64,000 bases of DNA, taken from NCBI GenBank assembly GCA_964016885.1, contig OZ024743.1, forward strand, positions 238,886,001-238,950,000, read 5' to 3'. The stretch is from Eledone cirrhosa. Lineage: Eukaryota. Positions 1,308 through 58,297 of this stretch are shown one piece after another; position 1 is the first letter of the stretch, and every line of letters starts with the position of its first letter. A model generated the notes under the pieces. The model was not told the DNA's origin. It was given only the letters and a program-made list of their open reading frames with translations, and searched no databases. The position numbers and the translations under genes were made by a program.

Positions 1308-3061
1308 ATGGCTACGAAAAATAATTTTCACAAGTCACTCCCACTCATTCCGTCTTCTTCTTCCTCAATCGTCACTACAGCAGAGAGAAGATTGTCTCTC
1401 TCCCTCCCTTCTCTAAATGTGTCTCTCTCCCCCTCTTCTCTTTCGCAAGCGACGCCAGCAAAGAAAAATAGTTTACAAAATCACGTGCAAATCAAGGAAC
1501 ATTTCTCCACGACGACGACAACGACGAAAAAGATGTGAGGGAAATACGAAAATCCATTTCATTCGTCTGACGTCAGGAATAATAGCAGTAGCATATTTTT
1601 CGAAACCCAACAGCACTGTACGGTCACGTACCGTACAGTAAACACAAAATCCCGTAGCGTTGAAAGAGCCACAGAGGCTCAAATACAAAAAGCCTTAGGG
1701 TCTGTGTGGCAGCGGAAAACGCATATCACCCGAGGCAAGAAATATGCCACCGTAGACGTGCTTTTTGTCACACCCCAGGAAGCAAAGGCTCAATCCTTAG
1801 TGACCCTAAGGAGCGAGGAAATGGTGTTGGTGCCCTCCTACTGCGGGCAAAAAATTGTGAGGGTCAAACTGACCCAAGACACCCCCCCTCCTGGGATGGC
1901 CCCTTCTTGGCTGATCACGTCTGTCCTCGTCGGAATCGAGGACAAAACAACTGTACTGCAAGTACAGAAAAAAGTAAGAGAAGATTGGGTCGGCACCTCC
2001 ATTGAGATGTTAATCCAAACCAACCAGGAGTGCATCGAAGCTATCCCGGATGTGATAGACTTCGATAACGGCACTCAACTTCCCATAAGTGTTGAGGGCA
2101 AACGCCCGAAAAGCTTTCGCTGTGGATCGAAGACTCACCTCAGAGCCTTCTGCAACGAGAAGACCCTGAGAAAGGAGAAAACCCCTCCTTCCGAAACCGG
2201 CTCCACGGCTACCAGCAACAGGACAAGCGACAACCAGGAACGATAGGTCCGTGGCACCCATACCCACTCCACGGAAATCAAGAACAGCAGCAGCAGTGGA
2301 AGTATTAACAACAACAACAGTAATACCAAATGCAGCTGCAACAGAGACTCCACTGCAAACATCACCAACAACAAGAAGTGAAAGAGTGTAGCTGGTACTC
2401 CTCCCCGACCTCACAGAATCAGACATGGAGTGTGAGTTGGGAGAGGGATGGCAAAAGGTTGTAAGAAGGCACAAACGCAGAAGCAGCGCATCGTCGCCTT
2501 CGAAAAAGGCTACTGCAAAGAGACTCACAGCAGCAACACCACCAACACCATCACCACCCACACTAGCACCACCATCACAACCGGCGACAACCCTACCGCC
2601 AACAACAACAACACCTTCAACACCACAAGCACCAACATCGCAAACACAACAACAAAACACACACACCCAGCAACAACGACAAGAAAATAGCAGAACCACA
2701 CCCCACCCCCAGAAAAACAAATGCACGGCAATAAATACACACAACAAGAAACTAATGACTTACATAATTGAACACAGACATTTCACAGCACGACTACATA
2801 ATACCAGCACCAATCAAAACGCCAACGAACATAAGACTGGTAAAAATAGCACAGAAACAATACACAAACATTAAAACGAAATTCCCCAAAGCAGTTGGGG
2901 ATTTCAGAGACCTAGGAGGGACTCTCAACCGGAGAGTATATTCGTACATACTCATAGAAGAGCCGACGACCAGCCGAAGGGACGATTCAACGGTCCCTTC
3001 ACCAGACGATCAAGTGAAAAGGGATGGAGAAACCATCCTTCCTCTACGAAAAGAACGGTAA
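1308..3061 (+). pseudogene. LINE ORF1 (gag-like nucleic-acid-binding protein), disrupted
   Basis: Fragmented ORFs 1308-1538, 1704-2246, 2425-2874 and 2768-3061. Degenerate zinc knuckle SFRCGSKTHLRAFC (CX2CX4HX4C with first C lost). Thr/Pro/Gln-rich tail. Confidence 0.7.
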
Positions 3062-3096
3062 GTCGTCTTTCCCATCTTTTCCACTCCATTTTAAAC

Positions 3097-5520
3097 ATGA
3101 CCTCACTCAGAACAGGCAGCATAAATGCGCGTGGTTTGGGGTCGTCATGGAAGCAGGGTCACCTGCTCAACGACCTCAGGTCACTAAACATAGATGTAGT
3201 GGCCTTCAGCGAGACCAGTACTCCGAAGCACGGGCCTTCGCACCGATCTTCGGCGGCTACGATGTGTACGCATCTCCCAGCCGTCCTGGATCGGGGGGAG
3301 GAGTTGCTGTGCTTTTTCGGAGAGGTTTGGATCTCGCCATACGGGCCATCTTCCTGAACCCAGAGGGTAAGTTGGTGGTGCTGGACGTGACCAGCGGAGA
3401 CGAGCAAGCTTTCAGGCTAGTGGCCGTCTATGCCCCGACAGGAGCAGGGCGGCCTGATTTCTTCCGGCGTCTGGAGATCTTTCTTGGAACGTCCCGCTCT
3501 TTAGTGATAGTGGGCGACTAGAACGGGATCTTAGATGCACGCTGGGACTGTGTGGGATTAGCGGATAGGGGTGGAGGGTGCAAGAGCCTCACCAACCTGC
3601 TCAGGCGTTTTGAACTGTCTGACAGGTACCGATTGGATTTCCCGAATGTGCCAATGTGGACTTGGACAAATCGCATAGGGTCATCCAGATCATATCTAGA
3701 TAGAGTATTTTGTAGGGAAATAGATAGGTCTAGCATAGGCTGTCCACAATTCAAGATAGTCAGCTATACGGACCACAAATTTGTGATCTGTGTGCTTGAT
3801 TTAGATAGGCTTCATAGACGAGTACCCTGCTACTGGAAGCTAAACTCTTCCTTACCAGCGCGCAAGGCCTACAGAGACCGGATTAGTGAACTAGTTAAGC
3901 GGGCGTTGACGGGGGCCATCGTCAACAACAAGTGGTGGTTTGCTCTGAAAAGAGCGATTAGAATAGAATCCATTAGGATTAGTAAGGCTTTAGCAATAGA
4001 GAAAAATAGAGCAGAGGGAGAACTAGTTAGAAAATTAGACGAGCCGCTTAGCAAAAGCATCGCGACCGACGTGCTTGCGGCGAAATTGGCCCTTGACCAA
4101 TTCTTCAATGTAAAGCACGAAGGCTGCGTTGTCAGAGCTAGGGTGCGTGCTCTCAGACACGAGGGGACGAAAGCCGTTCAATGGACCCGAGTGGCGGAGA
4201 CGCGTCGTGGCAACAAAGCCACGATCCGGTATTTGGTGGACCACGACGGGTGCATGCTACTCGATCCCGGGCAAATGTGTGAAGCTTTTCAGCGACACTT
4301 CGCTCAGCTGTTCGGGGTCAGCGGTTGGCCGGGTCGAGGGATAAACTTTAGTGTCTACCTCGACGGACTGCCGCGGCTCTCGGCCACTGAGGCGAAGTGT
4401 TGCGAAAAGCCGATAAGAGCCGCTGAAGTACGGGAGGCAATGACTGGCTGCACAAGAGGTAAATCGCCTGGTTTGGATGGTCTGCCCTATGAACTTTACG
4501 TACAGATGCGTGACTTGTTCGGAGGCCTCTTGGCGGATGTCTACTGCAACTGGCAACAGAACGGGAGAATTCCCAGCTCCGTGAGCCGAGGAGCGGTGGC
4601 ACTCCTGAGAAAGGATCAGAACAAGGAGGATAACATAGATAATTTCAGGCCCATAACTCTGCTAAACACAGAGTTCAAGATTTTGGTCAAGGTGCTAGCA
4701 AAGAGTTTGGCGCTTATCGTTGGTGGTTGGTGGGATAGGCGCAGACATGCGCCATTCCCGACAGATCCATCCACGACAACCTCCACCTCATGCGATACAT
4801 CGTAGAGAAGGTAGCTAGGGAACCTGGAACGGGTGGGTCTTTGATCAATTTAGATCATTTGAAAGCTTTCGATAGGGTCGACCATCGTTACCTAGCCGCA
4901 GTCTTGAGGGCGGCTGGCTTTGGGCCCGTCTTCAGAGGCTGGATCGCTGCCATGCACAGCGACATCTGCTCTGTGGTGAGAGTCAACGGTCACCTTTCGG
5001 AACCGATCAACATCATGCGCTCGGTCCGCCAGGGATGTCCCCTCTCGTCCCTCTTGTACGTATTGACTCTCGAGCCATTACTTCACAAACTGGAGACGTT
5101 TAGGGGAGTCGCGCGCGAACTAGGATGCTTAAGATCCGTGTCAGCATATGCGGACGATGTCATCGTAGTGGTGTCGAATGCCAAACACATCGAGGCGATC
5201 GGTACTACACTAAGAGAATACGAAGCGGTGACAGGAGCAATGATCAACCAGGAAAAGTCAGTGGGCCTGCAGCTCGGCACATGGAGAGGCAGGTCTATGC
5301 CGTCCAACAGCAAAGTCGGACGCTGGACGGATGGACCGGTTAAATTGCTAGGGGTCTGGTTCGGTTCGGACATCCAGACGGACAAACACTGGGACGAGGT
5401 GACGAGCAGGTTGGCTTCTCTCACCCAGAAATGGGCGGAGAGGAAGCTATCCCTGAAAGGTCGAGCGGAGGTGGCTAACGCGTACATCGCGTCTGTCATC
5501 TGCTACCGCCTGCCGTCGTA
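3097..5520 (+). pseudogene. LINE ORF2: APE endonuclease plus reverse transcriptase, with frameshifts and a premature stop
   Basis: Motifs GSINARG, VYAP, IVGD*N (TAG at 3519), YLDRVF, TDH, WKLN, KSPGLDGLPYE, FRPITLLN, KAFDRV, RQGCPLS and AYADD, spread over several frames. Confidence 0.93.
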
Positions 5521-5589
5521 TCTTGTCCTAAGCCCCGCCTCACTGTTATTCATGTATATAAGTACATATTTAAATATATAATTATATAT

Positions 5590-5830: not shown

Positions 5831-6339
5831 ATATAATTATATATATATATATATATAATTATATATATATATATATATATATATAATTGAAAAAGTCGAG
5901 AATAACATGGTCAACAGTACAAAAAAGGGGATTTATTTGCAGTCTAACAATTGTTTCACCGATAGAGTTATCTAAAAATTGCTGAACACTAAAAGCAGTG
6001 CCACTCAATTTTAAATACGATGTTAACTCTACTAGATCATTGGAAACTGATCAAAACATATATGTGTAACCGGCAAATTTACAAATTCAAATTACATCAT
6101 CAATAATAATATTAATAATAAAGATGTAGAGAGAAAAGGAGGAAAAAAGGGAGATAGCTTTACTTAAGGCAGGCCATAAAGAAAATACATACCAGATACA
6201 AAAAATAACAACACACTTAATATTAATAGCACCATCCACACCTATAGAAACAACAAACCTAGAACTAAACATAAAAATTGGCAACATGCACGTAAATTAA
6301 AGGAACAGAATACTATTACAAAGACCACTAATAACTATA

Positions 6340-7149
6340 GAAGATGCCGAAATAGAAACTACTTATGGTTCAATCCTATGTTTAACCCCTCTATAAAAAC
6401 TAAGCTACCTTACACTTTCTTAAAATTAGTTGACAAACATTTCCCTAAAATTCATAAATATCATAAAATCTTTAATAGAAAAACTATCAAACTATCATAC
6501 TCCACTGCCAACAACATAGAATCGCACATACACAATATTAACTATAAAAGAACGTATAATACAAGTGGCCCACAAATAAGTGCCATAACACCAAATACAA
6601 AACACAAGCATATAACATCATCACAACCAAACTCGCGTCAGAGCACATCACCACAATGCGTCAACAAACCCAATTCTCATCCCATACATAGCAACCTGCA
6701 AAACCATTTAGAAGAACCGGCGCATAGAAAAGCATCTAAATGTAACTGGCACCTAACTGACAAATGCCATTTACAAAACAGATGCCAAGAGACAAATATA
6801 GTATACCTATGTACTATAAATTCAGGTAGCTTAGGACGGAATTACATTGGTTCCGCAGCTGGAGAGTTTAAGAAAAGGTGGTACGTACATAGACACTCTA
6901 TGACTAACATGAATCTCTGAAAGACAACGACTCTCGCCAATAAAATCTGGCAAATTAAAGATGCAAACATAGAATATAAAATCAACTGGACAAAGCAATC
7001 AAATTGGTATGTCCCACTGTGGTCTCTGTAATATGGAACTTTTTCAAATTTTAAATTAAAACAAGATTCTTCTTAACAGTAAAATTGAAAAAAACATTTT
7101 TTGTCGACATAAATCAGCAACTAAATTTGAGAACTTTAGACCAGCTTAA
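6340..7149 (+). pseudogene. PLE linker plus GIY-YIG endonuclease remnant (Naiad-like)
   Basis: WFNP..FLKLVDKHFP..HKYHKIFNRKTIKLSYST, Cys-rich linker KCNWHLTDKCHLQNRC, NIVYLC..NYIGS..FKKRWYVH. Stops downstream. Confidence 0.85.
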
Positions 7150-7456
7150 TTCCATCTTATCTATCCCATAACCCAGATTGTACCACTTGGATCTATTATG
7201 ATATCACATTATCAGCATCATCATCATCATTATAATTATTACTATAATTGTCATCATCTATCAAAGAACAACAGCAAAACCTCTTATATTTACAATTTTA
7301 TTTAATATATATATTTTTTTTCACTCTTTATCTTAATATGTCTCTCCCTAAATTTATCTTATAATTGTCATTCTATTTTATCGTATAATATAACTTAAAA
7401 CTAATTAATTAATTTATTTATTAAAATAACCATTACACATATAAATATATTTAACA

Positions 7457-8020
7457 CTAGCAGTGGTACCCGGCGTTGCACGGGAAAATGTATTTTGGAA
7501 CGCGGGCCGCCAACAGAACTAATCGTGGAAAAACTGTATGCCTCGACAATATGTAAAGAAAATAAAGCGAATACTCTGATGGCTGGATAATCTTTAAGAT
7601 TTTACTAGATGAAGAAGGAAAAATACGGACCCTAGGGGATCAAGAAAATGAATTTTTTTATGTGCATAATATGCCTTGACATTTCGGGAAAATCGGCTAG
7701 ACGTAACGCCTCAACAAAGCTCTAAAATGTTGAAAAAATGAAGTTTTTCACCTAATGCGGGCCCTAGACCATAAAATAGTTGGATTTTTTTTGCTCACCG
7801 TATGAAGAAGAGACTGACTAATACATAGTTACAATTTCAAGGAAATCAGTATGAGGTAACGCCTCAAAAAACACCAAAAAACCTGAATAAACGCAGTTTG
7901 TCACCTAGGGGGAAAAAAGGTAATTTTTTTATGTGCATAACACTCCCTGACACATAAGTAATACACCTGTAAAGTTTGAAAAAAGTCGGTTGGGTTATTC
8001 TCGAGTTTTAGGGATTCAAA

Positions 8021-8113
<93 letters not shown>

Positions 8114-8430
8114 ACACACACACAGACAGACATCCTCAGGGTAGTGACGTAATGCAACAGCCAGACATACAGACAGATATTATAAGGGCGCGACGTTATA
8201 TGTATGTATCTATGTAAAAAGAGAAAGACTAAGAATTATAGAGAGAGATCGATAAATCGCCTAATGCGGTCCCTAGGGCATTGCCAATTTGAAATTCTTT
8301 TTTCTCAGAATGCTCCCTGAAACATAAGTATTACATGTGTAAAGTTTGAAAACAGTCGGTTGGGTGGTTCTCTAGTTTTAGGGATTCAAACTCACACACA
8401 CACAGACATCCTCAGTTTTATATATATAGA
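7457..8430 (-). mobile_element. Non-autonomous Helitron
   Basis: Minus strand starts TCTATATATATAAAACTGAGGATGTC and ends cccgtgcaacgccggg hairpin ...CTAG followed by T. It has an internal duplication of its 5' part and a (CA)n tract at about 8023-8123. Confidence 0.85.
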
Positions 8431-9485
8431 CTAGCAGAAAGCCACCCGGTGGGCGGTTTTCTGCTAGAAAATCTAGTGTATATAGTGATATTGTTGAGAT
8501 TTGGATGAGAAATATTTTCGGCACCACATGTTCACCGTCTCTCGGTGTGTCTTTTATGGATGTATAAATATATATGTTATCTATACGGTGAAATCTCTGA
8601 AATAAATATATGTTAAAACGAAAAAGGAGAAAATAAATAACTGGCGGTTAGAAAAAATATTCCTATGAATTTGTAATCATACCATTAGGTGTGAATAAGG
8701 AAATATTTTTTTATTGTCAAAACAAATGTTCAAAAGTTAAACTTCAATTTTTTGAATTATTTCCAATTTTTTCATGAAATTGAACACTGGACATTGGCTG
8801 CTGGAAATGGAAATTAAGTCGTATTTAATTGTATTTAAATTTCTAGCCTTATTTTATTATTTATATTTTTTCAATAAGAAATAAAAAAAAACAACAAAAA
8901 AAATTGAAGAAAAAAATTGAACAAATCAAACGTAGGTTATGGAACTGCGCAATCTGATTAATAAATTACCTCATCAGCAGCAACCTTCTTCAAATGGTCC
9001 TTATTATCAGCAGCAACAACCACAAATTCAATGGCAACCTTCTTCAAATGGTCCTTATTATCAGCAGCAACAACCACAAATTCAATGGCAACTTTCTTCA
9101 AACCACAAATTCAATGGCGACCTTCTTTGCATGGTGTCAAGTCAGAACCGCCTCGAACTGGTTACTTCTGGCTTGTACAAGGTGTCTCTATAGCAACCAG
9201 CGATTCCCTCGGCCTCAGTGACCAAAGTCAGTGGCGAGGGGAAGGTAATGTTTCTATAGCGACAGTGTTTCTCTTGGTACTACCAAAGTGGAGAAAGGAA
9301 GGGGAAGGTAATATTTCTGTAGCACGTGTTTTAGCGTCTATTCACTATCTCTCTCTCCCTCTCTCCCTTCCGCTATCCCCCTCTCGTAGTCTGTCTCTTT
9401 CTTTCACTCTCACTCTCTCTCTACGCACGTGTTTCCACTGTCGGACAGACAGACAGAGAAATTGCTGGTTATATATATAAGTAGA
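8431..9485 (-). mobile_element. Second non-autonomous Helitron (different family), head-to-tail with the first
   Basis: Minus strand is A|TCTACTTATATATATAACC ... GC-rich hairpin ...CTAG. It contains about 60-bp tandem repeats at about 8970-9120. Confidence 0.8.
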
Positions 9486-9887
9486 TTACCATATTTTCAC
9501 CATTTTTTCATAATTTTTTTTATATATATATTTTAATTTTTATTTACATTTATTTACGCATTAACGCTTATTCATCTATTTGTCTCCCTATCCTTCTTCT
9601 CTTCTCTCTATCATACGTTTATTCTTATTTACGTTTGTTACTCATCTATCTACCATCATATTCTTCATCTCTTTATATTTCTATCTATAATAATTTCTCC
9701 TTTTCTTCTTCTTTCTTTTTTTCTTTTTCTTTTTCCTTCTTCTTCTTTTTCCTTCCTTTCCTTTGTTTCTTTACTGTATGTATCTCCCTGTGTTCCTCCT
9801 TTTCTCTCTAAATCTTTATTGTTAATATTATTATTGATGATGTAATTTGAATTTGTAAATTTGCCGGTTACACATATATGTTTTGAT

Positions 9888-9997
9888 CAGTTTCCGATGA
9901 TCGAGTAGAGTTAACATCGTATTTAAAATTGAGTGGCACTGCTTTTAGTGTTCAGCAATTTTTAGATAACTCTATCGGTGAAACAATTGTTAGACTG
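9888..9997 (+). ncRNA. Type I hammerhead ribozyme variant (CCGAUGA core, 79-nt stem II)
   Basis: Stem I cagttt/agactg, core CCGATGA, stem II tagagtta/taactcta, GAAA, palindromic stem III acaattgt, GUU triplet. A mutated inverted copy lies at about 5940-6049. Confidence 0.7.
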
Positions 9998-10310
9998 CAA
10001 ATAAATCCCCTTTTTTGTACCGTTGTCATGTTATTCTCCACTTTTTAAATTCTATTACTGCAAGATAAACTTACATAGGAATACAAGTGAAATCATAAAC
10101 TCGTCATCTACGTAAACCTCTTGTTGAGTTAAGCAACGCCGTACGCTAGCACTATCCATAATAAGAAATATTCACAACCTCTAATTGGATTACCTATAAC
10201 AATATTTTGTTATCCTTTATATATATATATACACATTCACTGCTTATCTACCTATTTATCTCTCATTCTCTGTCTCTCTCCCTCTGTCTGTCTGTCAATC
10301 TCTTTCTCCC

Positions 10311-18312: not shown

Positions 18313-19998
18313 AAATCAGGTTCAATAAAACGTGGTTTTGATGACTCCTAACCATTAGAGGATTCGGTGGACCATCCACCATAGGTTGTTGTTGTCCATT
18401 GGTCATTGGCACGGGGTGTAGGGGACCTACAGGGGGGGGGGGGGGGGCGTTGTGGGAGGCCTTAAGCCGGGTTTATCCATATAGCTTGAGGAAAGTTCCC
18501 GTCCTTAGGTGTCTGCAGGCACCGAATAAGTCGGCCCTTGGTTCCGTCATGAAGTATCTCGAGTGTCTCACTAAGACAGAGGTTGCAAATACCAGACCTT
18601 CCTCTGTCTGGGGGAACCTTTCTAACGACGGACCAGACCAGAGAGTGCGGGGTCTTTTCATGTTTGAGCTTCCAGATCAATTCAGAAAGGGCCGTACATT
18701 TCCTCTTATCTATTCTGTTAAAGGAATAGCGATGGTTATACCACCGATCTTTGAATCTCGTCGCTGTGGACCCTATGTAGTGGTGCTCCGAGTTAGGGGT
18801 TGTGACCTTGCACCTGTAGACTGCGTTTTTCGTGATGGGTCTCTGCAATTACATGACTTCTTAAGCAACAACACCACATGTACCGCGTGGTTACCATCAC
18901 TCGGAGTTGGCTGGGTAGCCTCCACAATCAGCACAGGGTCGTTGGGTTCCGGTGTGCTAGTTCGGCCTGTCCGGGTTAGGGTGCGGCCCGCGTGTGGGTC
19001 CTGTTAGGTGGCTCCGGGGTTTACGGTGGTATTAGAGGCAGTGAGCCTATTCCTATTTATGCCAGCTATGTGTTGGGCTACGGAGCGTGTGGTTGACTAG
19101 GAAAGTATCACCGTGTGCCTGTTGAATATTTTATGGCACTTGTGGGCCCTAGGGAAACATTTATCCAGTACTCTAAAGAATGTTTTAGCCAGGCTGGTAC
19201 GTAGACCCACCGAGTACGGAGGGTTATACCAAGTGACCTTCCTGGTCTTATTCTTGCGGGGTTGTTGGGTGTCCGCCGTGGTCCATCGTGTGGTTGTGCA
19301 CAGCTCAGGTCGAGCTCGGTTGGTGTCACTCAGGTGTGCGGAGCGGTCACTATCAGGAGGGTTATATGGGCCCACCGTGGGGCTATAAAGCTGCGAGGTG
19401 CGGCTTCTCTGCTCAATTAGGGTTCGGCGGGTGGTGGGGCCGGTGGAGGGGTGCCTATGCTCCGCAGCACAGTGGTCTTCAGCGTTGTAGGTATTAGACC
19501 GGTGGGGTGGTGACGGTTAGGGGTCTGGGAGTGTTACTACTGGTCACCGAGGTATTAGGTGGGCGACTCATGCCCCTGAGGGTATTGGTCCGGGGTACCC
19601 CTGGGTCATCTCGATCATGTCCCTTAGGGTTGTAGCTGATCCTACGGCTGTGGGACGCTTGGCTAGCGCTGAGTTATAGTAATCAGCATTACTATTGAAG
19701 ATCTCTTTATTGGCAGACAAGTTAGAGATCCTGTCAGAGACACTCTTAACTACGGCCTTAACTATAGATCTAGGGTGATTAGACCCAGCGTTGATATACA
19801 ACAGCTTCTCATTGGGTTTATGATATGGGTGGTGTAGCTTGATGTTGAGGTTGTGGGTGGTGTCCAGAAAATTCACTACTTTTCTATTGGGTTCCATCTC
19901 TACTTTAAGTCCTACCTTGCTAAAGAAGTGTCTAATTCTCCTCTTCATATTTTCGACCATTGTGGTGCTGTGGTCCACTACGGTGAAGAGTGTGTCGT
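18313..19998 (-). mobile_element. PLE remnant (RT C-terminus, linker, GIY-YIG; Naiad-like) in (AT)n
   Basis: VVNFLDTT..PYHKPNEKLLYINAGSNHP, VTWYNPPYS..LDKCFP..HKIFNR, CNCRDP, NAVYRCKV..HYIGSTATRFKDRWYNH..CNLCLSE. Confidence 0.9.
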
Positions 19999-20222
19999 AT
20001 ATATATAGAGAAAAACCACAGACCCTCCATCTCAACTCACCTTTTGAAAAGAAGAAGAACTGCGAAATCGGTAAAGGAACCAAATAAATATATATATAAA
20101 AAAATAATAAGACTCCAGTTGCATTTTCGATTTCATCTCTTTTTCTTTATACTTTCACTCGTGTAGGACACCTCGGTTATTTTTCATTTTGTAAAAAAAA
20201 AAACCCCTCACTTTCTAATATA

Positions 20223-24287: not shown

Positions 24288-24976
24288 GGACACTAGGAAC
24301 CCATATAAAAATAATAATTCAGTGGATGGAATAAAGCTAGCGGGGACTAAATTCCAAAACACTGAAAATATTCACTGCCTCTGGTCAGTGGTCGATTCTA
24401 AAGAATCAATCACGTGACACTGAGGTTACTCAGTGAGGAGTGGGGTGGTATTATGACAAGAGCCTACTACTACCATGAATTAGCAGTAAATTTTGGCAAG
24501 TTTTACTCAACGAATAATTTGGAGATAAATATAGAGAATTAGTATATCTACCAACATATGTGTACAGATGTACACCCATGCTAGCAAATATATATGTTAT
24601 GTCTTAGTACCTTTGTGGTTCTATGCAGGGGGATGCAGAACAATTATATGAAAGACGTAAAATAAGAACATTTTAAAAATTAAAAATTAACTTACTAAAA
24701 TTTTCACTCCAACTAATTAGTTTCTGTAAGGGGATAAATATAGTTACGTAATATAACTATAGAGAATTCCTTACGTCTATTCTCAGCTAAGTTCACAGAC
24801 AAATTTTAATAAGTAAGTTAATTTTTAATTTTAAAAATTTTCTTATTTTACGTCTTTCATATAATTGTTCTGCTTCCCCCCCTTCCCCCTGCATAGAACC
24901 ACAAAGGTACTAAGACATAACATATATATTTGCTAGCATGGGTGTACATCTGTACACAGATGTTGGTAGATATACT

Positions 24977-24980
<4 letters not shown>
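24288..24980. mobile_element. Older fold-back copy of the 546-bp family (HHR core deleted)
   Basis: Homologous to 27044-27300 and 26750-27030. About 24536-24700 and about 24810-24980 are inverted repeats. Confidence 0.75.
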
Positions 24981-25063
<83 letters not shown>

Positions 25064-26749: not shown

Positions 26750-27777
26750 AGAATTTAGTATATCTACTAACATATGCGTACAGATGTACGCTAATGCTAG
26801 CAAATACATAAGTTATGTCATAGTACCTAGGTGTTTCAATGCAGGAGGATGCAGAACAATAATATGAAAGACGTAAAATAAGAAAATTTTAAAAAGAAAT
26901 TAAAAAATTAACTTACTTACTAAAATTTTCACTCCAACTAATTAGTTTCTGCAATGGGATAAAGACAGTTACGTAATATAACCGTCGAGAATTCATTGCG
27001 TCATCAGGGAGTCTATTCTCAGCTAAGTCTCCAGGCAATGCGCGGACACTGGGGACTCATATAAAAATAATAATAATTCGGTTTGATGGAACAGCTAGCG
27101 GGGACTGGATTCCATGCACTGAAAAGCTCGCTGTCTCTGGTCAAATGGCAGATTCTAAAGAATCAATCACGTGACACTGAGGCTAGTCGGTAGGAGTGGG
27201 ATGGTAAGATGACAGAAGCCTACTACCACACCAATAAATTAGTAGTGGTTTGGGCAGGTTTGCTCAACAAATAAATAATTTGGAGATAAATATAGAGAAT
27301 TTAGTATATCTACTAACATATGCGTACAGATGTACGCTAATGCTAGCAAATACATAAGTTATGTCATAGTACCTAGGTGGTTCAATGCAGGAGGATGCAG
27401 AACAATAATATGAAAGACGTAAAATAAGAAAATTTTAAAAAGAAATTAAAAAATTAGCTTACTTACTAACCTCAGTGTCACGTGATTGATTCTTTAGAAT
27501 CTGCCATTTGATCAGAGACAGCGAGCTTTTCAGTGCATGGAATCCAGTCCCCGCTAGCTGTTCCATCTACCGAATTATTATTATTTTTATATGAGTCCCC
27601 AGTGTCCGCGCATTGCCTGGAGACTTAGCTGAGAATAGACTCCCTGACGACGCAATGAATTCTCGACGGTTATATTACGTAACTGTCTTTATCCCATTGC
27701 AGAAACTAATTAGTTGGAGTGAAAATTTTAGTAAGTTAATTTTTTTATTTCTTTTTAAAATTTTCTTATTTTACGTC

Positions 27778-27784
<7 letters not shown>
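26750..27784. mobile_element. 546-bp-period HHR-bearing tandem plus inverted repeat (retrozyme-like or solo PLE terminal repeat)
   Basis: gaatttagtatatctactaac recurs at 26751 and 27297. Inversion at about 27470. HHRs at 26931-27012 (-) and 27639-27720 (+): actcc CTGA(T/C)GA c-gcaatg..cattgc-a GAAA ctaattag TT ggagt. No ORF, and flanked by (AT)n. Confidence 0.8.
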
Positions 27785-28512: not shown

Positions 28513-28755
28513 GTATATATATATTTATATGAAGATTTCATCTGAATGAAACAGTACTAGTACTGTAGAAGCTCCTTCTATAAAATATATATATATATTG
28601 GAATAAATGCTCTGAAATAGCGATATATATGTGAATATAGACATAGAATATTCGAAAATATTCTGTATGTTTATAATAAACATTTTGAAGACCTAATCGC
28701 TATAGAATAGAATACGTCACGTATTACAATTAGATTCTCGATAAAAGCAAGGGAA

Positions 28756-30038
28756 GTAATCTACGCGTTTCATTCTCGTAAGAAATCATCAGGACTACAT
28801 ATCCAGTGCTTTTATCGAGAATGACACAGCTAGAGACTTATAGAATACTTAGCTGTGTACAGGAACTGGTTTGAAAGAGCGGTTGCCGGTCCGGCAGAAA
28901 TTAGAAATTGGAATAAATGCTCTGAAATAGCGATATATATGTGAATATAGACATAGAATATTCGAAAATATTCTGTATGTTTATAATAAACATTTTGAAG
29001 ACCTAATCGCTATAGAATAGAATACGTCACGTATTACAATTAGATTCTCGATAAAAGCAAGGGAAGTAATCTACGCGTTTCATTCTCGTAAGAAATCATC
29101 AGGACTACATATCCAGTGCTTTTATCGAGAATGACACAGCTAGAGACTTATAGAATACTTAGCTGTGTACAGGAACTGGTTTGAAAGAGCGGTTGCCGGT
29201 CCGGCAGAAATTAGAAATTGGAATAAATGCTCTGAAATAGCGATATATATGTGAATATAGACATAGAATATTCGAAAATATTCTGTATGTTTATAATAAA
29301 CATTTTGAAGACCTAATCGCTATAGAATAGAATACGTCACGTATTACAATTAGATTCTCGATAAAAGCAAGGGAAGTAATCTACGCGTTTCATTCTCGTA
29401 AGAAATCATCAGGACTACATATCCAGTGCTTTTATCGAGAATGACACAGCTAGAGACTTATAGAATACTTAGCTGTGTACAGGAACTGGTTTGAAAGAGC
29501 GGTTGCCGGTCCGGCAGAAATTAGAAATTGGAATAAATGCTCTGAAATAGCGATATATATGTGAATATAGACATAGAATATTCGAAAATATTCTGTATGT
29601 TTATAATAAACATTTTGAAGACCTAATCGCTATAGAATAGAATACGTCACGTATTACAATTAGATTCTCGATAAAAGCAAGGGAAGTAATCTACGCGTTT
29701 CATTCTCGTAAGAAATCATCAGGACTACATATCCAGTGCTTTTATCGAGAATGACACAGCTAGAGACTTATAGAATACTTAGCTGTGTACAGGAACTGGT
29801 TTGAAAGAGCGGTTGCCGGTCCGGCAGAAATTAGAAATTGGAATAAATGCTCTGAAATAGCGATATATATGTGAATATAGACATAGAATATTCGAAAATA
29901 TTCTGTATGTTTATAATAAACATTTTGAAGACCTAATCGCTATAGAATAGAATACGTCACGTATTACAATTAGATTCTCGATAAAAGCAAGGGAAGTAAT
30001 CTACGCGTTTCATTCTCGTAAGAAATCATCAGGACTAC
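28756..30038 (-). ncRNA. Five minimal type I hammerheads (28756-28798, 29066-29108, 29376-29418, 29686-29728, 29996-30038)
   Basis: Reverse complement of gtagtc CTGATGA t-ttct-tacg-agaa-t GAAA cgcg TA gattac. Confidence 0.9.
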
Positions 30039-30394
30039 ATATCCAGTGCTTTTATCGAGAATGACACAGCTAGAGACTTATAGAATACTTAGCTGTGTAC
30101 AGGAACTGGTTTGAAAGAGCGGTTGCCGGTCCGGCAGAAATTAGAAATTGGAATAAATGCTCTGAAATAGCGATATATATGTGAATATAGACATAGAATA
30201 TTCGAAAATATTCTGTATGTTTATAATAAACATTTTGAAGACCTAATCGCTATAGAATAGAATACGTCACGTACATTTATTCCAATTTCTAATTTCTGCC
30301 GGACCGGCAACCGCTCTTTCAAACCAGTTCCTGTACACAGCTAAGTATTCTATAAGTCTCTAGCTGTGTCATTCTCGATAAAAGCACTGGATAT

Positions 30395-31367
30395 GTAGTC
30401 CTGATGATTTCTTACGAGAATGAAACGCGTAGATTACTTCCCTTGCTTTTATCGAGAATCTAATTGTAATACGTGACGTATTCTATTCTATAGCGATTAG
30501 GTCTTCAAAATGTTTATTATAAACATACAGAATATTTTCGAATATTCTATGTCTATATTCACATATATATCGCTATTTCAGAGCATTTATTCCAATTTCT
30601 AATTTCTGCCGGACCGGCAACCGCTCTTTCAAACCAGTTCCTGTACACAGCTAAGTATTCTATAAGTCTCTAGCTGTGTCATTCTCGATAAAAGCACTGG
30701 ATATGTAGTCCTGATGATTTCTTACGAGAATGAAACGCGTAGATTACTTCCCTTGCTTTTATCGAGAATCTAATTGTAATACGTGACGTATTCTATTCTA
30801 TAGCGATTAGGTCTTCAAAATGTTTATTATAAACATACAGAATATTTTCGAATATTCTATGTCTATATTCACATATATATCGCTATTTCAGAGCATTTAT
30901 TCCAATTTCTAATTTCTGCCGGACCGGCAACCGCTCTTTCAAACCAGTTCCTGTACACAGCTAAGTATTCTATAAGTCTCTAGCTGTGTCATTCTCGATA
31001 AAAGCACTGGATATGTAGTCCTGATGATTTCTTACGAGAATGAAACGCGTAGATTACTTCCCTTGCTTTTATCGAGAATCTAATTGTAATACGTGACGTA
31101 TTCTATTCTATAGCGATTAGGTCTTCAAAATGTTTATTATAAACATACAGAATATTTTCGAATATTCTATGTCTATATTCACATATATATCGCTATTTCA
31201 GAGCATTTATTCCAATTTCTAATTTCTGCCGGACCGGCAACCGCTCTTTCAAACCAGTTCCTGTACACAGCTAAGTATTCTATAAGTCTCTAGCTGTGTC
31301 ATTCTCGATAAAAGCACTGGATATGTAGTCCTGATGATTTCTTACGAGAATGAAACGCGTAGATTAC
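30395..31367 (+). ncRNA. Four minimal type I hammerheads (30395-30437, 30705-30747, 31015-31057, 31325-31367)
   Basis: Stem I gtagtc/gattac, core CTGATGA, stem II ttct/agaa, GAAA, palindromic stem III acgcgt, GUA triplet. Predicted cut after 30431 and then every 310 nt. Confidence 0.9.
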
Positions 31368-31749
31368 TTCCCTTGCTTTTATCGAGAATCTAATTGTAAT
31401 ACGTGACGTATTCTATTCTATAGCGATTAGGTCTTCAAAATGTTTATTATAAACATACAGAATATTTTCGAATATTCTATGTCTATATTCACATATATAT
31501 ATATATATATATGAATATATATATATATTTAAATTATTGATATATTGTTTTATTGATATTTTTTATCTGTTTGTCCCGAATCTTCTATTATCGAATTTTT
31601 ATCGTATGGTTGATTGTAGACTTGTTCTATATGTGACGGTATTTTAACGATAGTTATAGCTCTGATTCATCTGAATTATTGAGCCCTCTGCCGCTCATTT
31701 CGAATTTTGTTTATCGTGAACTCGTGCGCCGATTTTTCGATACTCGATC

Positions 31750-32786: not shown

Positions 32787-33720
32787 ATGAACATGGCATT
32801 AAATGGACACTGCCTGACACCCAACATAGTCTATAGGTGCACAGTTGAGACTGCTTCGAATACCAGCTCTTATATCGGGTCTATTTCTAACCCTTTTAAG
32901 GTACGCTATAACGCGCACTCTTTTTCCTTCCGAGATCCTAGCAACAGATGTTCGACATCGCTAGCTAGGCTCATTAAAAACCTTAAATTAAACAAAGTTC
33001 AACACTCACTATAATGGGATATCGTAGCTAGGGCCCAACCGTTCAATGGACGAAGGAAATCTTGTGATCTCTGTGTTACGGAAGCATATTACATAACTCT
33101 ATCACAACCTCTACCAATTAACGATAGAACGGAGGTAACCATTAGCTGTCAACATCGAAGGGCTAATTCCTTCGCCAATAGAGTTTTTGACCCAACTTAG
33201 TCATGTAGACCCATCTCTAATTGTAGCTAATAAGTTAAATTGCTATGAACAACTCGATAATTATAAGTTACTTCCCCTACATTGTCTCTCAATTAAATAA
33301 TTTAAATACTAGCACATAACTATAAAATACACACAATCTCTAATCTCTCGAGAAGTTACTTCCCCTGAAACCACCCTCTAATTAGTAAGGTAAATATGCC
33401 CTTTGGCAGCCATCTTGTTACCCATAGGCAGATCTCACACAATGCAGCCTCGACAGATGAATACTGCTTGATTATGGCTGACAGCTGATGCAACCAAGGC
33501 ACCATAGTAAAAACCAATATATGGAACATTATATTATGTAACATTATTTTAATTTATATTCCTTTGAGTTCCGATGAGCCACTCTGTTTTTTAAAATATG
33601 TTAATTATTTTCAACTGAACCAGATCAATTTTGATATATAGTCATCTGATCCAGAAATATTATATGGAGTAGCGAAACAATTGTAAACGGACATTATTAT
33701 TATTAATATTATTATTATTA
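32787..33720 (+). mobile_element. PLE 3' remnant: GIY-YIG (about 32787-33200) plus 3' repeat with HHR variant (33568-33688)
   Basis: LNGHCLTPNIVYRC..SYIGS..FKVRYNAH..WDIVARA..CDLC. HHR reads gtt CCGATGA gc.actc..(96 nt)..gagt.gc GAAA caattg TA aac. Confidence 0.8.
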
Positions 33721-39510: not shown

Positions 39511-39757
39511 AGTAATAATAATAAAATTGAAGACTAAAATCCAAAGAGGGCTCGATAAGGAAAATATATATCAAATATATAAGAACCGTAGAGCAAATAT
39601 TTATTAAAATAACAGATTAAAGTTTAAGCAAAGAATCGCTGCTTTCACCCTTAACGGGATCTTCTGAAACTAACAAAGACAATCTGTAATCGCAGAACTG
39701 GATATTTCAAAAAACGTTGCAGCCGGAGGAAGACAGGAAGACGATACTTTGGTTCGT

Positions 39758-41419
39758 GACCGTAAAACTAATCGGTGCGTCATCAATGAAATCAACGATG
39801 CTGGGTTTAAAATCACATCTGATCTCAACATCCTGGACCGGACCGAACCTCTGGACCCTATCTCTCCCCACTTTACCCTGAAGGATCACAAATCCAATTT
39901 TCCGAATAACCCCTCTATTCGGCTTATTAACCCTACGATGTCCGATTTAGGTAGACTTAGTAAAACGATTCTTGATAGAATTATACCTGAAATTAGAAGT
40001 TTGGCCCTCTCGCACTGTGGAACAATTCTTTCGCGGTGATTGATTGGTTCAACGGCATATGTAACAAGGAACATTGCCGTTTTATCCAATTGGACATCAA
40101 CAATTACTACTCCTCCATCACTTTACCACTTCTCCTTAGAGCTATCAATTTCGCTAAAACACTCACAGTGGTTAAGGATTTTTAAGTTGATGTCATCCTT
40201 AATGCCCGAAAGTCGGTGATTAATTTCGACGACTCTATTTGGATTAACAAATCCAATAGTACCCCATTCGACGTGAGTATGGGCGCCAGTGACTCTGCGG
40301 AGGTTACTGATCTTATTGGCCTTTTCCTTCTTTTCTCTATCAAGGACGAATTCCCCAACGCGGGCGGTGGTTTGTACCGTGACGATGGTCTTTTGACCAT
40401 GACTAAGTGCGGACCTCGTGCTTTCGACAGGTTCAGAAAAGAACTCACAGCCTTCTTTAAAGGCTTCAACCTCTCTATACAGGTTGAGGCCAATCTCTCG
40501 GTCGTTAATTACCTCGACGTTACCCTCAATTTATTGAATGGGTTGTATTACCCGTATAGAAAGCCGAATGATACGCCTTAATTACATAAGTAAGCATTCC
40601 AATCATCCTGCCAGCATAACCAAGTGCATTTTCAACGACCATTCCACTTATTACAATGAAGCTCTTGCTCGGAGTGGATTTGTCGATAAGGTAGCATATA
40701 CAGAGTATGAAAATAGACCTAGAAGAAATAGATCCCGTCACATTTGTTGGTTTAACCCACCATATAATATGGAGGTGGCCACACCATTAGCTAAGATCTT
40801 TCTTTCCCTTATTACGAAGCATTTTCCCCCTACACATAAATATAGTAAAATTTTTAATAGAAATACTATTAAAATTTCTTACTCTACGACTCCTAACCTT
40901 GCACATAACATCACAGCTTCAAATTTAGCTAAACTACCTAGCCGTAGGAACACGTGCAACCCTGTAGTTAGTACTAACTGTAATTGTAGGAATCGGGCTG
41001 ATTGCCCCCTATCCGGGAAATGCCTCTCTAGTAACATTGTCTACAAATGTAAGGTTGTAACACCCACGTCCCGTAGGGCCTACATAGGGTTAACCGCCAA
41101 TAGTTTCAAGCAGCGTCTTTACATGCATACCCATTCTTTTCGTTACCCTCTAAGAGGGAATATGACGTCACTTTCAGCTTATATCTGGAGTCTAAAAGAC
41201 AACCACACCCAATATAAGTTACACTGGGAGATCCTAGCTAGGGCTACATCGTATAACGGAAATAAAAGACCATGTGACCTCTGCGCCGCTGAGGCCCTGG
41301 AAATACTCTACGCCATAGACCACATCTTAAACAAAAAATCTGAGGCAACTTCGGCTTGTAAACATAAATTGCACAAAACTTTCCTGTATTACAGCCCCAC
41401 GTTATACCCTAACGGATAG
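39758..41419 (+). pseudogene. PLE reverse transcriptase plus GIY-YIG endonuclease, frameshifted
   Basis: HFTLKDHKSNFPNNPSIRLINP, FDVSMGASDSAEVTDLIG, GLYRDDGL, VNYLDVTLNL, SNHP, WFNPPY, CNCRNRADCPLSGKC, NIVYKC..AYIGLT..FKQRLYMH, CDLCAAE..ILNKKSE..CKH. Confidence 0.93.
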
Positions 41420-42347
41420 CACGATCTATACGTGGATATTTTACGTCTTGATGTGGGAGCTAAGTATATGTTTTGTTTATTCCTTTACTTATTTGCATAG
41501 GTAAGTATATATTATCCATATGTTTTGTGAAGGTATGTATACCTTCTCGTACGTATATTTGACTGTTATGGCGTATCATTTTTACATATTCTGGTATTTA
41601 GGGTTTGGCTATGTGTATACCGGAGTTTTGCGTCCGAGTGAGTATGCAGGTTCGTACGTATGGTGGGTGTGTGTATATGTGTACTTCTTGTTTTAGTTGA
41701 CTTACGTCTCCGAACATTCGTGTATTTATATGTAGGTATGTGTGTGCGCTTGTTATATACGTATTTATTTACTTATATACGTTTATATAATTATTTATTT
41801 ATTTGTACACAAGCATACACACACACACATATTTATATGGGCGTGGTTTTGTATACCTATGGTAAGGTTTTGCGTATGCTTGTGTATGTACGTATCTGTT
41901 TGCGTGTATGTATTTATTTGTTTCTATTACTTCTGTATCGTATTTATTTACTTTGTTCGTAACTCTGAAGCGGAGATTCATTTGGTCTCCTAGTTAGAAT
42001 TTTAGTCTACGACTTCTGCTATACCATTTACGTGGTTTTGTCTTTGCGTGCTTTTGTTCTCCACGCTCCACATATGACTTATTATCTTCGTTTTTTCGTT
42101 CATTGCCAGAGAACGTCTCTATGCACCATCTAAGAGAACATTAGTCTACGACCTCCTTTATACAATAAACGTGGTTTTGTCTTTGCGCGTAATTGTTTTT
42201 CACCGCTCCTATTAATGACGTATTATTCGTTTTTTCCCGTTCTTTGCAAGCGAACGTTACCACGAACCAAAGTATCGTCTTCCTGTCTTCCTCCGGCTGC
42301 AACGTTTTTTGAAATATCCAGTTCTGCGTTTACAGATTGACTTTGTT

Positions 42348-42398
42348 AGTTTCAGAAGATCCCGTTAAGGGTGAAAGCAGCGATTCTTTGCTTAAACT
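42348..42398 (+). ncRNA. Hammerhead-like motif with CAGAAGA core (family B PLE terminus)
   Basis: agttt CAGAAGA t-ccc-gttaa-ggg-t GAAA gca-(9 nt)-tgc TT aaact. About 13 copies in the window. Confidence 0.65.
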
Positions 42399-42414
42399 TT
42401 AATCTGTTATTTTA

Positions 42415-42472
<58 letters not shown>

Positions 42473-43982: not shown

Positions 43983-44012
43983 TATAAATATACATATATA
44001 TTTATATATATA

Positions 44013-45373
44013 CTAGCAGAATGGCCCGACGTTGCTCGGGATTAGCTATAGGGTTCTTATATATTTGATATATATTTATCCTTATCGAACCTCGTGAAAT
44101 AAATACGTTTGTTTATATTTTGTTATTGTGTATGCAAAAATATCTGTCCATGAATATATAACTATATATATATCTATATATATAAAACAGAGGATGTCTG
44201 TGTGTCTGTTTCCCTAAGACTCGAGAAGTACCCAACCGGTTTTTTTCAAACTTTATACATGTAACTCGTATGACCCCGGAAGTGTTTTGAGCAAAAATAA
44301 TTTCAAATTTTCAATGCCCTAGGGACCGCATTAGGCGATTTAGCGATGTCTTTCTCTTTCTCTTAGTCTTTCTCTTTTTAGATAGATACATAGATATGAC
44401 GTCACGCCTTCATAATATCTGTCTGTATGCCTGACTGTCTGCATTACGTCATTATGACGCTATCAGTGTGTGTGTATATATTCTTATGCCAGGGAACGTC
44501 TTCACGAACCAAAGTATCGTCTTCCTGTTTTCCAGATTGATTTTTTTAGTATAAGAAGATCTCGTTAAGGTTGAAAGCAGCGATTCTTTGCTTAAACATT
44601 AATATGTTATTTTAATATAGATATTCGTGTACAGATATTTTTGCATACACAATAACAAAATATAAACAAACGTATTTATTTCACGAGATTCGATAAGGAT
44701 AAATATATATCAAATATATAACAACCCTATAGCAAATCCCGAGCAACGCCGGGTCATTCTGTTAGTATATATTAAAATAACAGACTAAAGTTAAAGCAAA
44801 GAATCACTGCTTTCACCCTTAACGGGATATTCTACCTAAAAGCAGTATGAAGTACATACACTAATACTAATTGATCTAATCTTTGGCCTTGTTTGTTTAT
44901 ATTTTGTTTTTGTGTATGCAAAAATATCTGTACACGAATATCTATATTAAAATAACATATTAATGTTTAAGCAAAGAATCGCTGCTTTCAACCTTAACGG
45001 GATCTTCTTAAACTAAAAAATCAATCTGGAAAACAGGAAGGCGATACTTTGGTTCGTGAAGACGTTGCCTGGCATAAGAATATATATACACACACACTGA
45101 TCGCGTCATAATGACGTAATGCAGACAGTCAGGCATACAGACAGACATTATGAAGGCGCGACGTCATATCTATGTATCTATCTAAAAAGAGAAAGACTAA
45201 GAGAAAGAGAAAGAGATCGGTAAATCGCCTAATGCGGTCCCTAGGGCATTGCAAATTTGAAATTTGTTTTGCTCAAAACACTTCCGGGGTCATACGAGTT
45301 GCATGTATAAAGTTTGAAAAAAACCGGTTGGGTACTTCTCGAGTTTTAGGGAAACAGACACACAGACATCCTC

Positions 45374-45385
<12 letters not shown>
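44013..45385. mobile_element. Cluster of nested/inverted non-autonomous Helitrons: complete + copy 44173-44765 inside minus-strand copies
   Basis: A|TCTATATATATAAAACAGAGGATGTC at 44173. cccgagcaacgccggg hairpin plus TTAG|T at 44765. Minus-strand CTAG end at 44013. The 5' part is homologous to 7457-8430. Confidence 0.85.
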
Positions 45386-45411
<26 letters not shown>

Positions 45412-55620: not shown

Positions 55621-55623
<3 letters not shown>

Positions 55624-56151
55624 ATATGAAGACTAAAATCCAAAGAGGGCTCGATAAGGATAAATATATATCAAATATATAAGAACCGTAGAGCAAATAT
55701 TTATTAAAATAACAGATTAAAGTTTAAGCAAAGAATCGCTGCTTTCACCCTTAACGGGATCTTCTGAAACTAACAAAGTCAATCTGTAAACGCAGAAGTG
55801 AATATTTCAAAAACGTTGCAACCGGAGGAAGACAGGAAGACGATACTTTGGTTCGTGGAAATGTTCGCTGGCAAAGAACGAGAAAAAACGAATATAATAC
55901 GTCATTAATAGGCTCGGTGAAAAACAATTACGTATTATATTCGTTTTTTCGCGTTCTTTGCCAGCGAACGTTTCCACGAACCAAAGTATCGTCTTCCTGT
56001 CTTCCTCCGGTTGCAACGTTTTTTTAAATATCCAGTTCTGCGTTTACAGATTGACTTTGTTAGTTTCAGAAGATTCCGTTAAGGGTGAGTGAAAGCAGCG
56101 ATTCTTTGCTTAAACTTTAATCTGTTATTTTAATAAATAATTAATAAATAA

Positions 56152-56250
<99 letters not shown>

Positions 56251-58030
56251 TATATATATATATTTATATATATATATATAGTAATAATAGTAAATTTGAA
56301 GACTAAGATCCAAAGAGGGCTCGATAAAGATAAATATATATCAAATATGTAAGAACCGTAGAGCAAATATTTATTAAAATAACAGATTAAAGTTTAAGCA
56401 ATGAATCGCTGCTTTCACCCTTAACGGGATCTTCTGAAACTAACAAATTCAATCTGTAAACGCAGAAGTGAATATTTCAAAAACGTTGCAACCGGAGGAA
56501 GACAGGAAGACGATACTTTGGTTCGTGGAAACGTTCGCTGGCAAAGAACGAGAAAAAACGAATATAATACGTCATTAATAGGCTCGGTGAAAAACAATTA
56601 CGTATTATATTCGTTTTTTCGCGTTCTTTGCCAGCGAACGTTTCCACGAACCAAAGTATCGTCTTCCTGTCTTCCTCCGGTTGCAACGTTTTTTTAAATA
56701 TCCAGTTCTGCGTTTACAGATTGACTTTGTTAGTTTCAGAAGATTCCGTTAAGGGTGAGTGAAAGCAGCGATTCTTTGCTTAAACTTTAATCTGTTATTT
56801 TAATAAATAATTAATATATATATATATATATATATATAATTAATATATATATATATATATAATTAATATATATATATATATATATATATAGTAATAATAG
56901 TAAATTTGAAGACTAAGATCCAAAGAGGGCTCGATAAAGATAAATATATATCAAATATGTAAGAACCGTGGAGCAAATATTTATTAAAATAACAGATTAA
57001 AGTTTAAGCAATGAATCGCTGCTTTCACCCTTAACGGGATCTTCTGAAACTAAAAAAGTCAAATGTGAAGGCAGAAGTAAATATTTGTTTGCATATGTTA
57101 TGGCGTATATATTACATATTCTGGTACATGTGCATTTGGTTATGTGTATACTTGAGTTTTGCGTCTGTGTGAGTATGCGGGTTCGTACGTATGTAGGGTG
57201 TGTGTATATGTGTACTTTGTGATTTGGTCGACGTACATCTGCGAACATATGTGTATGTACATGTAGATATGTGTGTGCGCGCGTTATCAACGTATTTATT
57301 TATTTATATTCGTTTATTTAATTATATGTATACACGGACACACACACATATATATATTTTTTTTTAATATATATGTTTATGTGTATTTAGTGTATACGTT
57401 CGTATGTGTGCGGGTACAGGTGTTGTGTGGGTTTTGTATTTGCGTGCGGGATTTTTTGTGTACGTGCTTGTATTTGTATACCTATGGCGAGTGTTTTCGC
57501 GAATGAATGTGTATGTACGTTTATGGATGCGTGTATGTATTTATTTAATTTCATTTACCTCTGTATTTTATTTACTTTATTCTTAACTCTAAAGCTGAGA
57601 ATCATTCGGTTTCCTAGTTAGAATTTTAGTCTACGACTTCAGTTATACCATTTACGTGGTTTAGTCTTTGCGTGCAATTCTTCTCAACGATCCACATAAT
57701 GACGTATTATCTTCGTTTTTTCCGTTCATTGCCAAAGAACGTCTCCACGAACCACCTAATAGAATATTAGTCTACGACTTCATTTATACCATAAACGTGG
57801 TTTTGTCTTTGCGTGTAATTGTTTTTCACCGCTCCAAATAATGACGTATTATATTCGTTTTTTCCCGTTCATTGCCAGGGAACGTTTCCACGAACCAAAG
57901 TATCGTCTTCCTGTCTTCCTCCGGTTGCAACGTTTTTTGAAATACTTACTTCTGCGTTCAGAGATTGACTTTTTTCGTTTCAGAAGATCCCGTTAAGGGT
58001 GAAAGCACCGATTCTTTGCTTAAACGTTAA
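55621..58030. mobile_element. Three consecutive fold-back units of the family B PLE terminal repeat separated by (AT)n
   Basis: Units 55621-56140, 56281-56810 and 56891-58030. Each has a minus-strand terminus followed by a plus-strand terminus homologous to 41560-42420. Confidence 0.88.
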
Positions 58031-58046
58031 TCTGTTATTTTAATAA

Positions 58047-58109
<63 letters not shown>

Positions 58110-58297
58110 AATATTCTGTTATCTTTATCATTTATATATATCATCTATGATATTGGAAAGTTAATGTTACTGGAAATTTACTCATTGGATTAAACTCCGA
58201 ACTGTCTCTTAATCATCTTGTTGTGGACTTTCAAATCACATTGACCTACCTTTCAAATGTCCTTTGTCTTTATGGTTGAATTATCATCTCATTTAAA

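Follow-up and report, generated by a model that had tools for sequence, protein, structure and literature searches.

A head-to-head retrozyme array in Eledone cirrhosa with one short and one long end in (AT)n, and its likely insertion by a PLE-type enzyme

Ever since newt satellite DNA, it has been unclear how the hammerhead repeats of animals spread. For metazoan non-LTR retrozymes, copying of RNA circles by PLE enzymes has already been proposed (PMC7229834; PMC4209133). A PLE origin of retrozymes has been argued from co-occurrence and phylogeny, with the arrays ascribed rather to unequal crossing over, and one of nine frog retrozyme dimers was cleaved in vitro (10.64898/2026.07.22.740005). 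The PLE link has so far consisted of co-occurrence and sequence trees, and rolling reverse transcription has so far been a proposal.

A PLE insertion leaves a footprint of three parts: a copy that is inverted and 5'-truncated, a tail of 30-40 bp at one end and a (TA)n target (PMC8557442; PMC3846280); the marks of the Hydra clade are RWK, DKT, a CxCX5C linker, CxxC, CxH, a C-terminal GIY-YIG and a (TA)n target (PMC8557442). A purified PLE protein, Poseidon PAc of the anole, cuts and extends both strands of AT-rich DNA, is predicted to be a dimer and initiates at two positions within the RNA that delimit the tail and have no homology to the target; in vitro no difference in start site between the strands was seen, the RNA was a linear cognate RNA and hammerhead cleavage was unnecessary (PMC11167929). 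Here we describe an array within 64,000 nucleotides of Eledone cirrhosa (contig OZ024743.1, positions 238,886,001 to 238,950,000 of the forward strand; "the window") and its copies across the genome.

The array in the window

Judged from its sequence features, the element is a non-LTR retrozyme, a non-coding 310-nt repeat with a predicted hammerhead. Positions 28597-31500 of the window are two perfect tandem arrays of this one unit, arranged head-to-head with zero mismatches (Table 1). The arms meet 5'-to-5' at 30273/30274, and gap, overlap and added base are all absent. The original prediction had placed an orientation flip at this very point, with arms of about 5.4 and 4 units and both 3' ends in (AT)n: all of this is borne out, with a blunt junction, measured sizes of 5.41 and 3.96 units and 13 (left) and 12 (right) pure alternating bases at the ends. 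It had missed that the two ends are not equivalent, one being a 'short' and the other a 'long' end. Unit phases are counted from window position 30432, the base after the predicted cleavage site (phase 1).

Table 1. Features of the window discussed in the text (window coordinates)
Feature	Position	Strand	Details
Left arm	28597..30273	-	1,677 nt = 5.41 identical 310-nt units; 5 hammerhead motifs
Left arm ends			5' start = unit phase 39; 3' end = 'long' site, phase 163-165
Right arm	30274..31500	+	1,227 nt = 3.96 identical units; 4 hammerhead motifs
Right arm ends			5' start = phase 153; 3' end = 'short' site, phase 131-139, true end between 31492 and 31500
Head-to-head junction	30273..30274	.	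blunt; phases 39 and 153, so no mirror point
'Tail'	28597..28631	-	~33 nt, found solely at long-arm end; contains 16-17-nt core 28608-28623
Left (AT)n target half	28584..28596	.	sequence reading
Right (AT)n target half	31501..31528	.	sequence reading
Predicted type I hammerhead	30395..30437	+	motif and stem scan; cleavage predicted after 30431
PLE-A, broken copy	39512..42422	+	RT and C-terminal GIY-YIG, Hydra-clade motifs
PLE-B, older, 5'-truncated, nested insertions	5886..10218	+	sequence comparison
PLE-A end insertions, three consecutive, long-plus-short inverted	55621..58049	.	ends ~86 nt apart in each
Non-coding inverted element in (AT)n	26752..27784	.	long end ~118 nt beyond short end

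The unit has a GC content of 34%. There is no ORF of at least 120 aa in the array, which marks it as a passenger and not an autonomous PLE. Nine complete hammerhead motifs are present, one per unit and with a period of 310 nt; their cores lie at 30401, 30711, 31021 and 31331 on the + strand and at 30032, 29722, 29412, 29102 and 28792 on the - strand. The predicted ribozyme has a 6-bp stem I, a CUGAUGA core, a stem II of 4 bp whose base carries a U-U opposition, GAAA and a stem III that is short, palindromic and of the dimer type; cores with such a short stem III have been reported to act as dimers (PMC4209133). A search of the window with Rfam at gathering score gave no match. The monomer folds with -72.7 kcal/mol (z -3.9; none of 100 shuffles equally good), and the isolated 56-nt motif folds no better than shuffles, as expected for a dimer-type core.

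The retrozyme sits in (AT)n at the end of another hammerhead-bearing element: the left flank (28531-28583) is the 3' end of this element, broken off at the core, and fuller copies of it are found at L046, L067 and L094. At least four more families with a hammerhead motif lie beside (AT)n, in the window at 17802 (-), 22975 (-), 24275 (-) and 52066 (-) and elsewhere in L031, L044, L047, L061, L063, L071 and L100; one of these families has the same U-U opposition at the base of stem II.

Copies in the genome and the pairing of short and long ends

A genome search with the unit scored 39 candidates, which yielded 266 matches. A first set of 26 loci picked by unit sequence consists of the window and 25 loci taken from this and a further search: 22 are head-to-head pairs and four are single-armed. 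The original prediction depended on other copies being inverted and associated with (AT)n, and they are both. The 3' ends cluster at two sites about 33 nt apart, the short site at phase 127-139 and the long site at phase 159-172, mostly 165. In this set, both ends can be seen at 21 inverted loci, and all 21 combine a short with a long end (the probability of this is 5e-7 if arms picked their site at even odds), and the four single-armed loci all end at the short site.

Exact patterns of each end plus (AT)n have 1,218 and 1,238 matches genome-wide and the reversed-pattern controls have none, showing that the array ends do not arise by chance. The family thus comprises about 1,200 young insertions, mostly mirror-image pairs. 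Within the first 218 Mb of C1, 189 end matches (89 long, 100 short) include 63 outward pairs, every one of them short plus long; 26 long and 37 short matches are without a partner under the exact patterns. The rule also holds for three loci picked by one end only. Altogether 93 loci were mapped, seven of them single-armed (one cut by an N gap); L032, which is error-rich and has its left arm cut by the contig end, was left out after the first mapping. All 86 two-armed loci obey the rule, 62 of which had been selected as short-plus-long pairs, leaving 24 as the unbiased set. The order is long-short in 46 and short-long in 40. Arms range from 0.2 to 45 units (median 3.7) and their lengths are uncorrelated within pairs (rho 0.17, p 0.12); with 10.4 units per two-armed locus, the family total is estimated at roughly 13,000 units.

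What sets the end points is not AT microhomology, at least on present evidence. The original prediction had invoked it at both ends: in the window, the right end could share 8 nt with its target, but the left end, at the long site, has only 2 bases in common with it, and among 26 short-site ends 15 stop before the AT run of the unit, 8 could include it and 3 stop slightly earlier. Pairing with one mismatch is possible at the short site. An older sister family (316-nt unit, 2,643 candidates, about 91% identity between copies) has a different hammerhead and no AT run, and nevertheless ends at sites homologous to the short and the long site, indicating that AT pairing alone does not set the ends. 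A core of 16-17 nt between both sites is retained in further subfamilies; its conservation at this position suggests that the 17-nt core is likely a protein-binding element. Older sister lineages (L065:6373-6720, L137-L166, L218-L247) are 70-93% alike and have other hammerheads, with the core and both sites in common and arms of mostly 1-2 units.

The 5' ends are scattered around the unit: none of 72 is at the cleavage site, one of 172 lies within 5 nt of it and there is no clear hot spot among the 72 (scan p 0.04-0.48). Among the 36 clean junctions, nine have inserts of 1-39 nt; the other 27 are blunt or have an overlap of up to 6 nt, with a mean of 2.5 nt versus 0.75 nt at random (0 of 10,000 draws as high). 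Fourteen near-mirror junctions were not used, as their 5' phases are blurred by alignment overrun in an internal hairpin. At 16 of 21 informative loci (p 0.013), interruptions in the flanks retain their polarity, as for the halves of one microsatellite that served as one insertion target. Both ends have four AT pairs within 14 nt at 74 of the 86 loci and the other 12 have shorter or interrupted AT runs; the (AT)n flanks mask any target-site duplication, which in metazoan non-LTR retrozymes exceeds 4 bp when present. At L051, 66 nt of the two flanks form an inverted repeat around the insertion. Inverted flanks at L050 were considered as a fold-back and rejected: they are neighbouring PLE copies.

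Among the sequencing runs listed, 20 from 17 studies contain over half of the unit's words. Two runs labelled as other organisms, X6 and X10, each have the whole unit as one low-depth contig, with one and three differences, respectively; contamination, diet or environmental DNA, relatives or horizontal spread may be the source. That these contigs close on themselves was discarded as evidence for an RNA circle, because a tandem DNA array gives the same result.

Priming enzyme and template

We read the window array as a young insertion for which a PLE-type RT-endonuclease primed both cut (AT)n strands, probably copying one monomer RNA circle. As a whole this reading is reasonably probable; its first part, insertion by PLE-type two-strand priming, is very likely. 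All parts of the PLE footprint are found: the inverted copy (22 of 26 unit-picked loci), a tail of about 33 nt at one end (86 of 86) and the (TA)n target. The original prediction of two cDNAs primed on opposite (AT)n strands by a PLE agrees with the outward arms in (AT)n, the PLE-like layout and the PLE-type tail, but the partner PLE was not found.

Two PLE families of the window serve as a comparison. In PLE-A, the inverted arm (39512-39758) runs on for about 86 nt past the point where the + arm stops. This family is young and abundant (29,562 candidates) with open frames of up to 713 aa and more: its 709-713-aa ORFs have RWR, DKT, CxCX5C, CxxC, CxH and the C-terminal GIY-YIG, with a (TA)n target, and had no Pfam match above cut-off. 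A canonical hammerhead in the terminal repeat is another mark of the Hydra clade; the motif scan found only a degenerate core (CAGAAGA) in PLE-A. The 3' untranslated part of PLE-A holds a diverged 139-141-nt tandem repeat (42002-42257, 57619-57897) upstream of the CAGAAGA hammerhead-like hairpin. The inverted arm of PLE-B ends at a short site and its + arm about 165 nt further, and these sites recur in other copies. The original prediction had likened the array to four neighbouring regions, and the outward layout is indeed present at all four. Details differ: the element starting at 5886 ends at about 10218 and not 10051; the region given as 55621-58030 is three inverted insertions in a row that extend to 58049, two of them a 670-nt tandem duplicate; and the identification of 26750-27784 as a PLE is unsupported, since a search of this element for traces of RT and endonuclease found none.

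PLE-A and PLE-B share the asymmetry of the retrozyme but have longer tails (about 86 and 165 nt versus about 33 nt), and outward pairs of PLE-A found by pattern give a weak signal (7 long plus short, 2 short plus short and 0 long plus long from 125 matches). There is no sequence similarity between the unit and the PLE terminal repeat in the window or in 30 PLE-A loci, and the core motif is absent from the PLE-A and PLE-B loci examined; conversely, 30 loci that carry the core motif have no PLE ORF. The neighbouring families are therefore unsupported as mobilisers. An autonomous partner PLE with a 33-nt tail or common sequence was not found by BLAST, core-motif search and flank translation, which covered a fraction of the PLE families of the genome. 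The window also has broken PLE frames at about 18549-20068, 32799-33173 and 60329-61361, and inverted structures adjoining or around (AT)n at 24522-24995, 43999-45400, 58105-58568 and 60077-60290.

The template can be addressed from the differences between units. Minor calls amount to 0.08% within loci versus 0.82% between loci, and there are 34 haplotypes in 85 loci. At 18 of the 86 loci, a total of 19 variants are fixed in every scored unit of both arms while being private to the sample, meaning private among 86 of about 1,200 loci (40 nt per arm end were omitted from the variant counts). A variant in all units of two opposed arms must have passed through a one-unit template. Given PLE priming, a monomer RNA circle is thus the likely template, with multimers used in a minority of cases. 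The circular RNA template of the original prediction is accordingly favoured by the homogeneity within loci and the fixed private variants, except that two of the 86 loci are mosaic in register: at L187, both arms have two units of one haplotype followed by another, and at L176 a single-unit change is common to both arms. A mixed multimer may have served as template there, or the two RTs switched at the same time. From the L187 mosaic it follows that the two arms begin in one and the same unit of one RNA or of two identical RNAs. At L036 and L038 a haplotype switch is present in one arm only. Other points against our reading are the results in vitro given above: no strand difference in start site and no need for hammerhead cleavage (PMC11167929), and cleavage of only one of nine frog retrozyme dimers (10.64898/2026.07.22.740005).

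The in-register mosaics of L187 and L176 would also fit the alternative that comes closest, in which PLE two-strand priming takes place on a linear read-through transcript, long and uncut, of an array already in the genome. In vitro, unprocessed RNA served as the main substrate (PMC11167929). Arrays of 27-45 units are available as potential sources, and homogeneous daughters would also result from a linear transcript, provided that source arrays are few and clean. We nonetheless consider it unlikely, because it lacks the one-unit bottleneck that the fixed private variants require, and because the scattered changes of a parent array would be expected in both arms, in register. Across the 241 unit lengths that can be compared in register, 65 substitutions are confined to one arm and only two loci have a non-fixed change in both arms. 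Single-unit variants turn up again at other loci no more often than by chance (eight times versus 7.6 expected).

Further points for the monomer circle are the different spectra of fixed variants, mostly A>G and T>C, and of single-unit ones, more often C>T and G>A (Fisher p 0.002), and the near absence of deletions and of 5' ends at the predicted cleavage site. RNA editing is not supported as the origin of the fixed variants, as the excess of A>G (10) over T>C (6) is not significant (p 0.13). Among 899 crossings of the predicted cleavage site, one has a deletion; the rest are without loss, save for substitutions and one-base insertions that are mostly fixed in the locus. One-base insertions 2-4 nt past the predicted cleavage site are present in all or nearly all units of L057, L064, L181, L183, L190 and L208.

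Unequal crossing over, the satellite model favoured in 10.64898/2026.07.22.740005, would have a PLE insert arms of about one unit that grow later. The longest arms do contain repeated blocks (17 units at L053-54, 7 at L075 and 27 at L214-15), so part of their length was added after insertion or in assembly. As a general account it is quite improbable: the median arm has its 3.7 units in nearly mutation-free copies, whereas in the older sister family, which had more time, the longest arm has a median of 1.2 and a maximum of 2.3 units (30 loci chosen by best match and cut at 1.5 kb on each side).

Even lower is the probability that the second arm was copied from the first cDNA by fold-back and self-priming, akin to a model in PMC3846280. 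Such copying would explain the short microhomology at junctions and all variants shared between arms, including those of L187 and L176, but one arm class should then always be the shorter one. In fact, the longer arm is of the short-end class at 34 and of the long-end class at 52 of the 86 loci (by more than one unit at 25 and 39, respectively), and single-unit changes are mostly unshared between the arms. That either class may be longer argues against a fold-back, and arm lengths largely refute it unless later expansion is common.

In LINE-1 twin priming, primers from the two target strands likewise produce a head-to-head inversion with microhomology at the junction; the second start is variable, the arms do not overlap and poly(A) is needed. 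A broken LINE-like element with endonuclease-phosphatase and RT matches lies at 2875-5581 (+), yet the involvement of a LINE enzyme is just as hard to believe as a fold-back, given that the array has no poly(A) or repeat tail, its two arms cover overlapping sequence and begin at fixed sites inside the unit and the footprint is of the PLE type. Last, tandem plus inverted repeats are hard to assemble, as seen at L032, but an assembly or long-read fold-back artefact is scarcely conceivable, with junctions that are mostly not mirror points and vary by locus, ends that differ by a fixed rule and short-read contigs of run X1 (which may be the assembled sample) that break off into (AT)n at 30570 and 30601 (phases 139 and 170).

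For our main reading, PLE two-strand priming on a monomer circle, we propose the following steps. Array transcripts would be cut by hammerhead dimers and ligated to circles. The protein dimer would bind the conserved core between the short and long sites and cleave both strands of (AT)n; one RT would begin at the short site and the second at the long site. Both would roll by strand displacement and drop off at arbitrary points, and the two cDNA ends would then join by 0-6 nt of microhomology or a short insert. We tentatively suggest a more specific model, which we hold to be a little short of probable: one dimeric PLE-type protein would load two RTs on a single ribozyme-made circle, at two fixed sites flanking the 17-nt core, each RT being primed from one (AT)n strand and both rolling. 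If this model is true, the short-plus-long rule would explain in general why PLEs have a tail and why their insertions are inverted, and the 310-nt RNA would be a minimal substrate to rebuild the reaction.

Comparison with known systems

Retrozymes and the proposed PLE link are known; the insertion footprint and the paired start sites appear to be new. The original prediction saw in the array a genomic tie between retrozymes and PLE machinery: inversion, tail and target do support this tie, but the link itself had already been proposed (PMC7229834) and argued from phylogeny (10.64898/2026.07.22.740005). The main texts of these two papers do not describe inverted arms, fixed ends, tails or microsatellite targets for retrozymes. 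Our literature search, which did not extend to supplements and subscription journals, found no account of retrozyme insertions that are inverted and tailed, nor of start sites that are obligately paired. About 1,200 near-identical insertions carry a mechanistic footprint and, in their variants, a pattern by which circular and linear templates can be told apart. That the start sites are strictly paired is a new constraint on PLE integration, and the unit is a small, defined substrate for work in vitro.

Like the metazoan non-LTR retrozymes in the described parts of the literature (PMC7229834; 10.64898/2026.07.22.740005), the family has a non-coding tandem unit in the range of 170-400 nt with one type I hammerhead each, low GC (<50%) and extensive self-pairing; it is unlike them, as described, in its inverted arms, fixed ends, tail and microsatellite target. 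A parent pLTR for the window retrozyme was sought in the window and in 30 PLE-A loci, and none was found. In comparison with LINE-1 twin priming, the head-to-head inversion with junction microhomology is the same and the fixed second start, the overlapping arms and the absence of poly(A) are different.

With the endonuclease-bearing PLEs (Hydra, Naiad, Neptune, Penelope/Poseidon) the retrozyme shares the head-to-head 5'-truncated copy, the tail at one end and (TA)n; unlike them, it is without an ORF and its arms are multimers of up to 45 units. The tail is optional in PLEs according to PMC8557442 and PMC3846280, whereas exactly one is present in every two-armed retrozyme locus. Poseidon PAc is similar in its use of both strands and of two internal start sites that bound the tail and lack target homology; unlike its start sites in vitro, those of the retrozyme are strictly paired and lie on a non-coding passenger.
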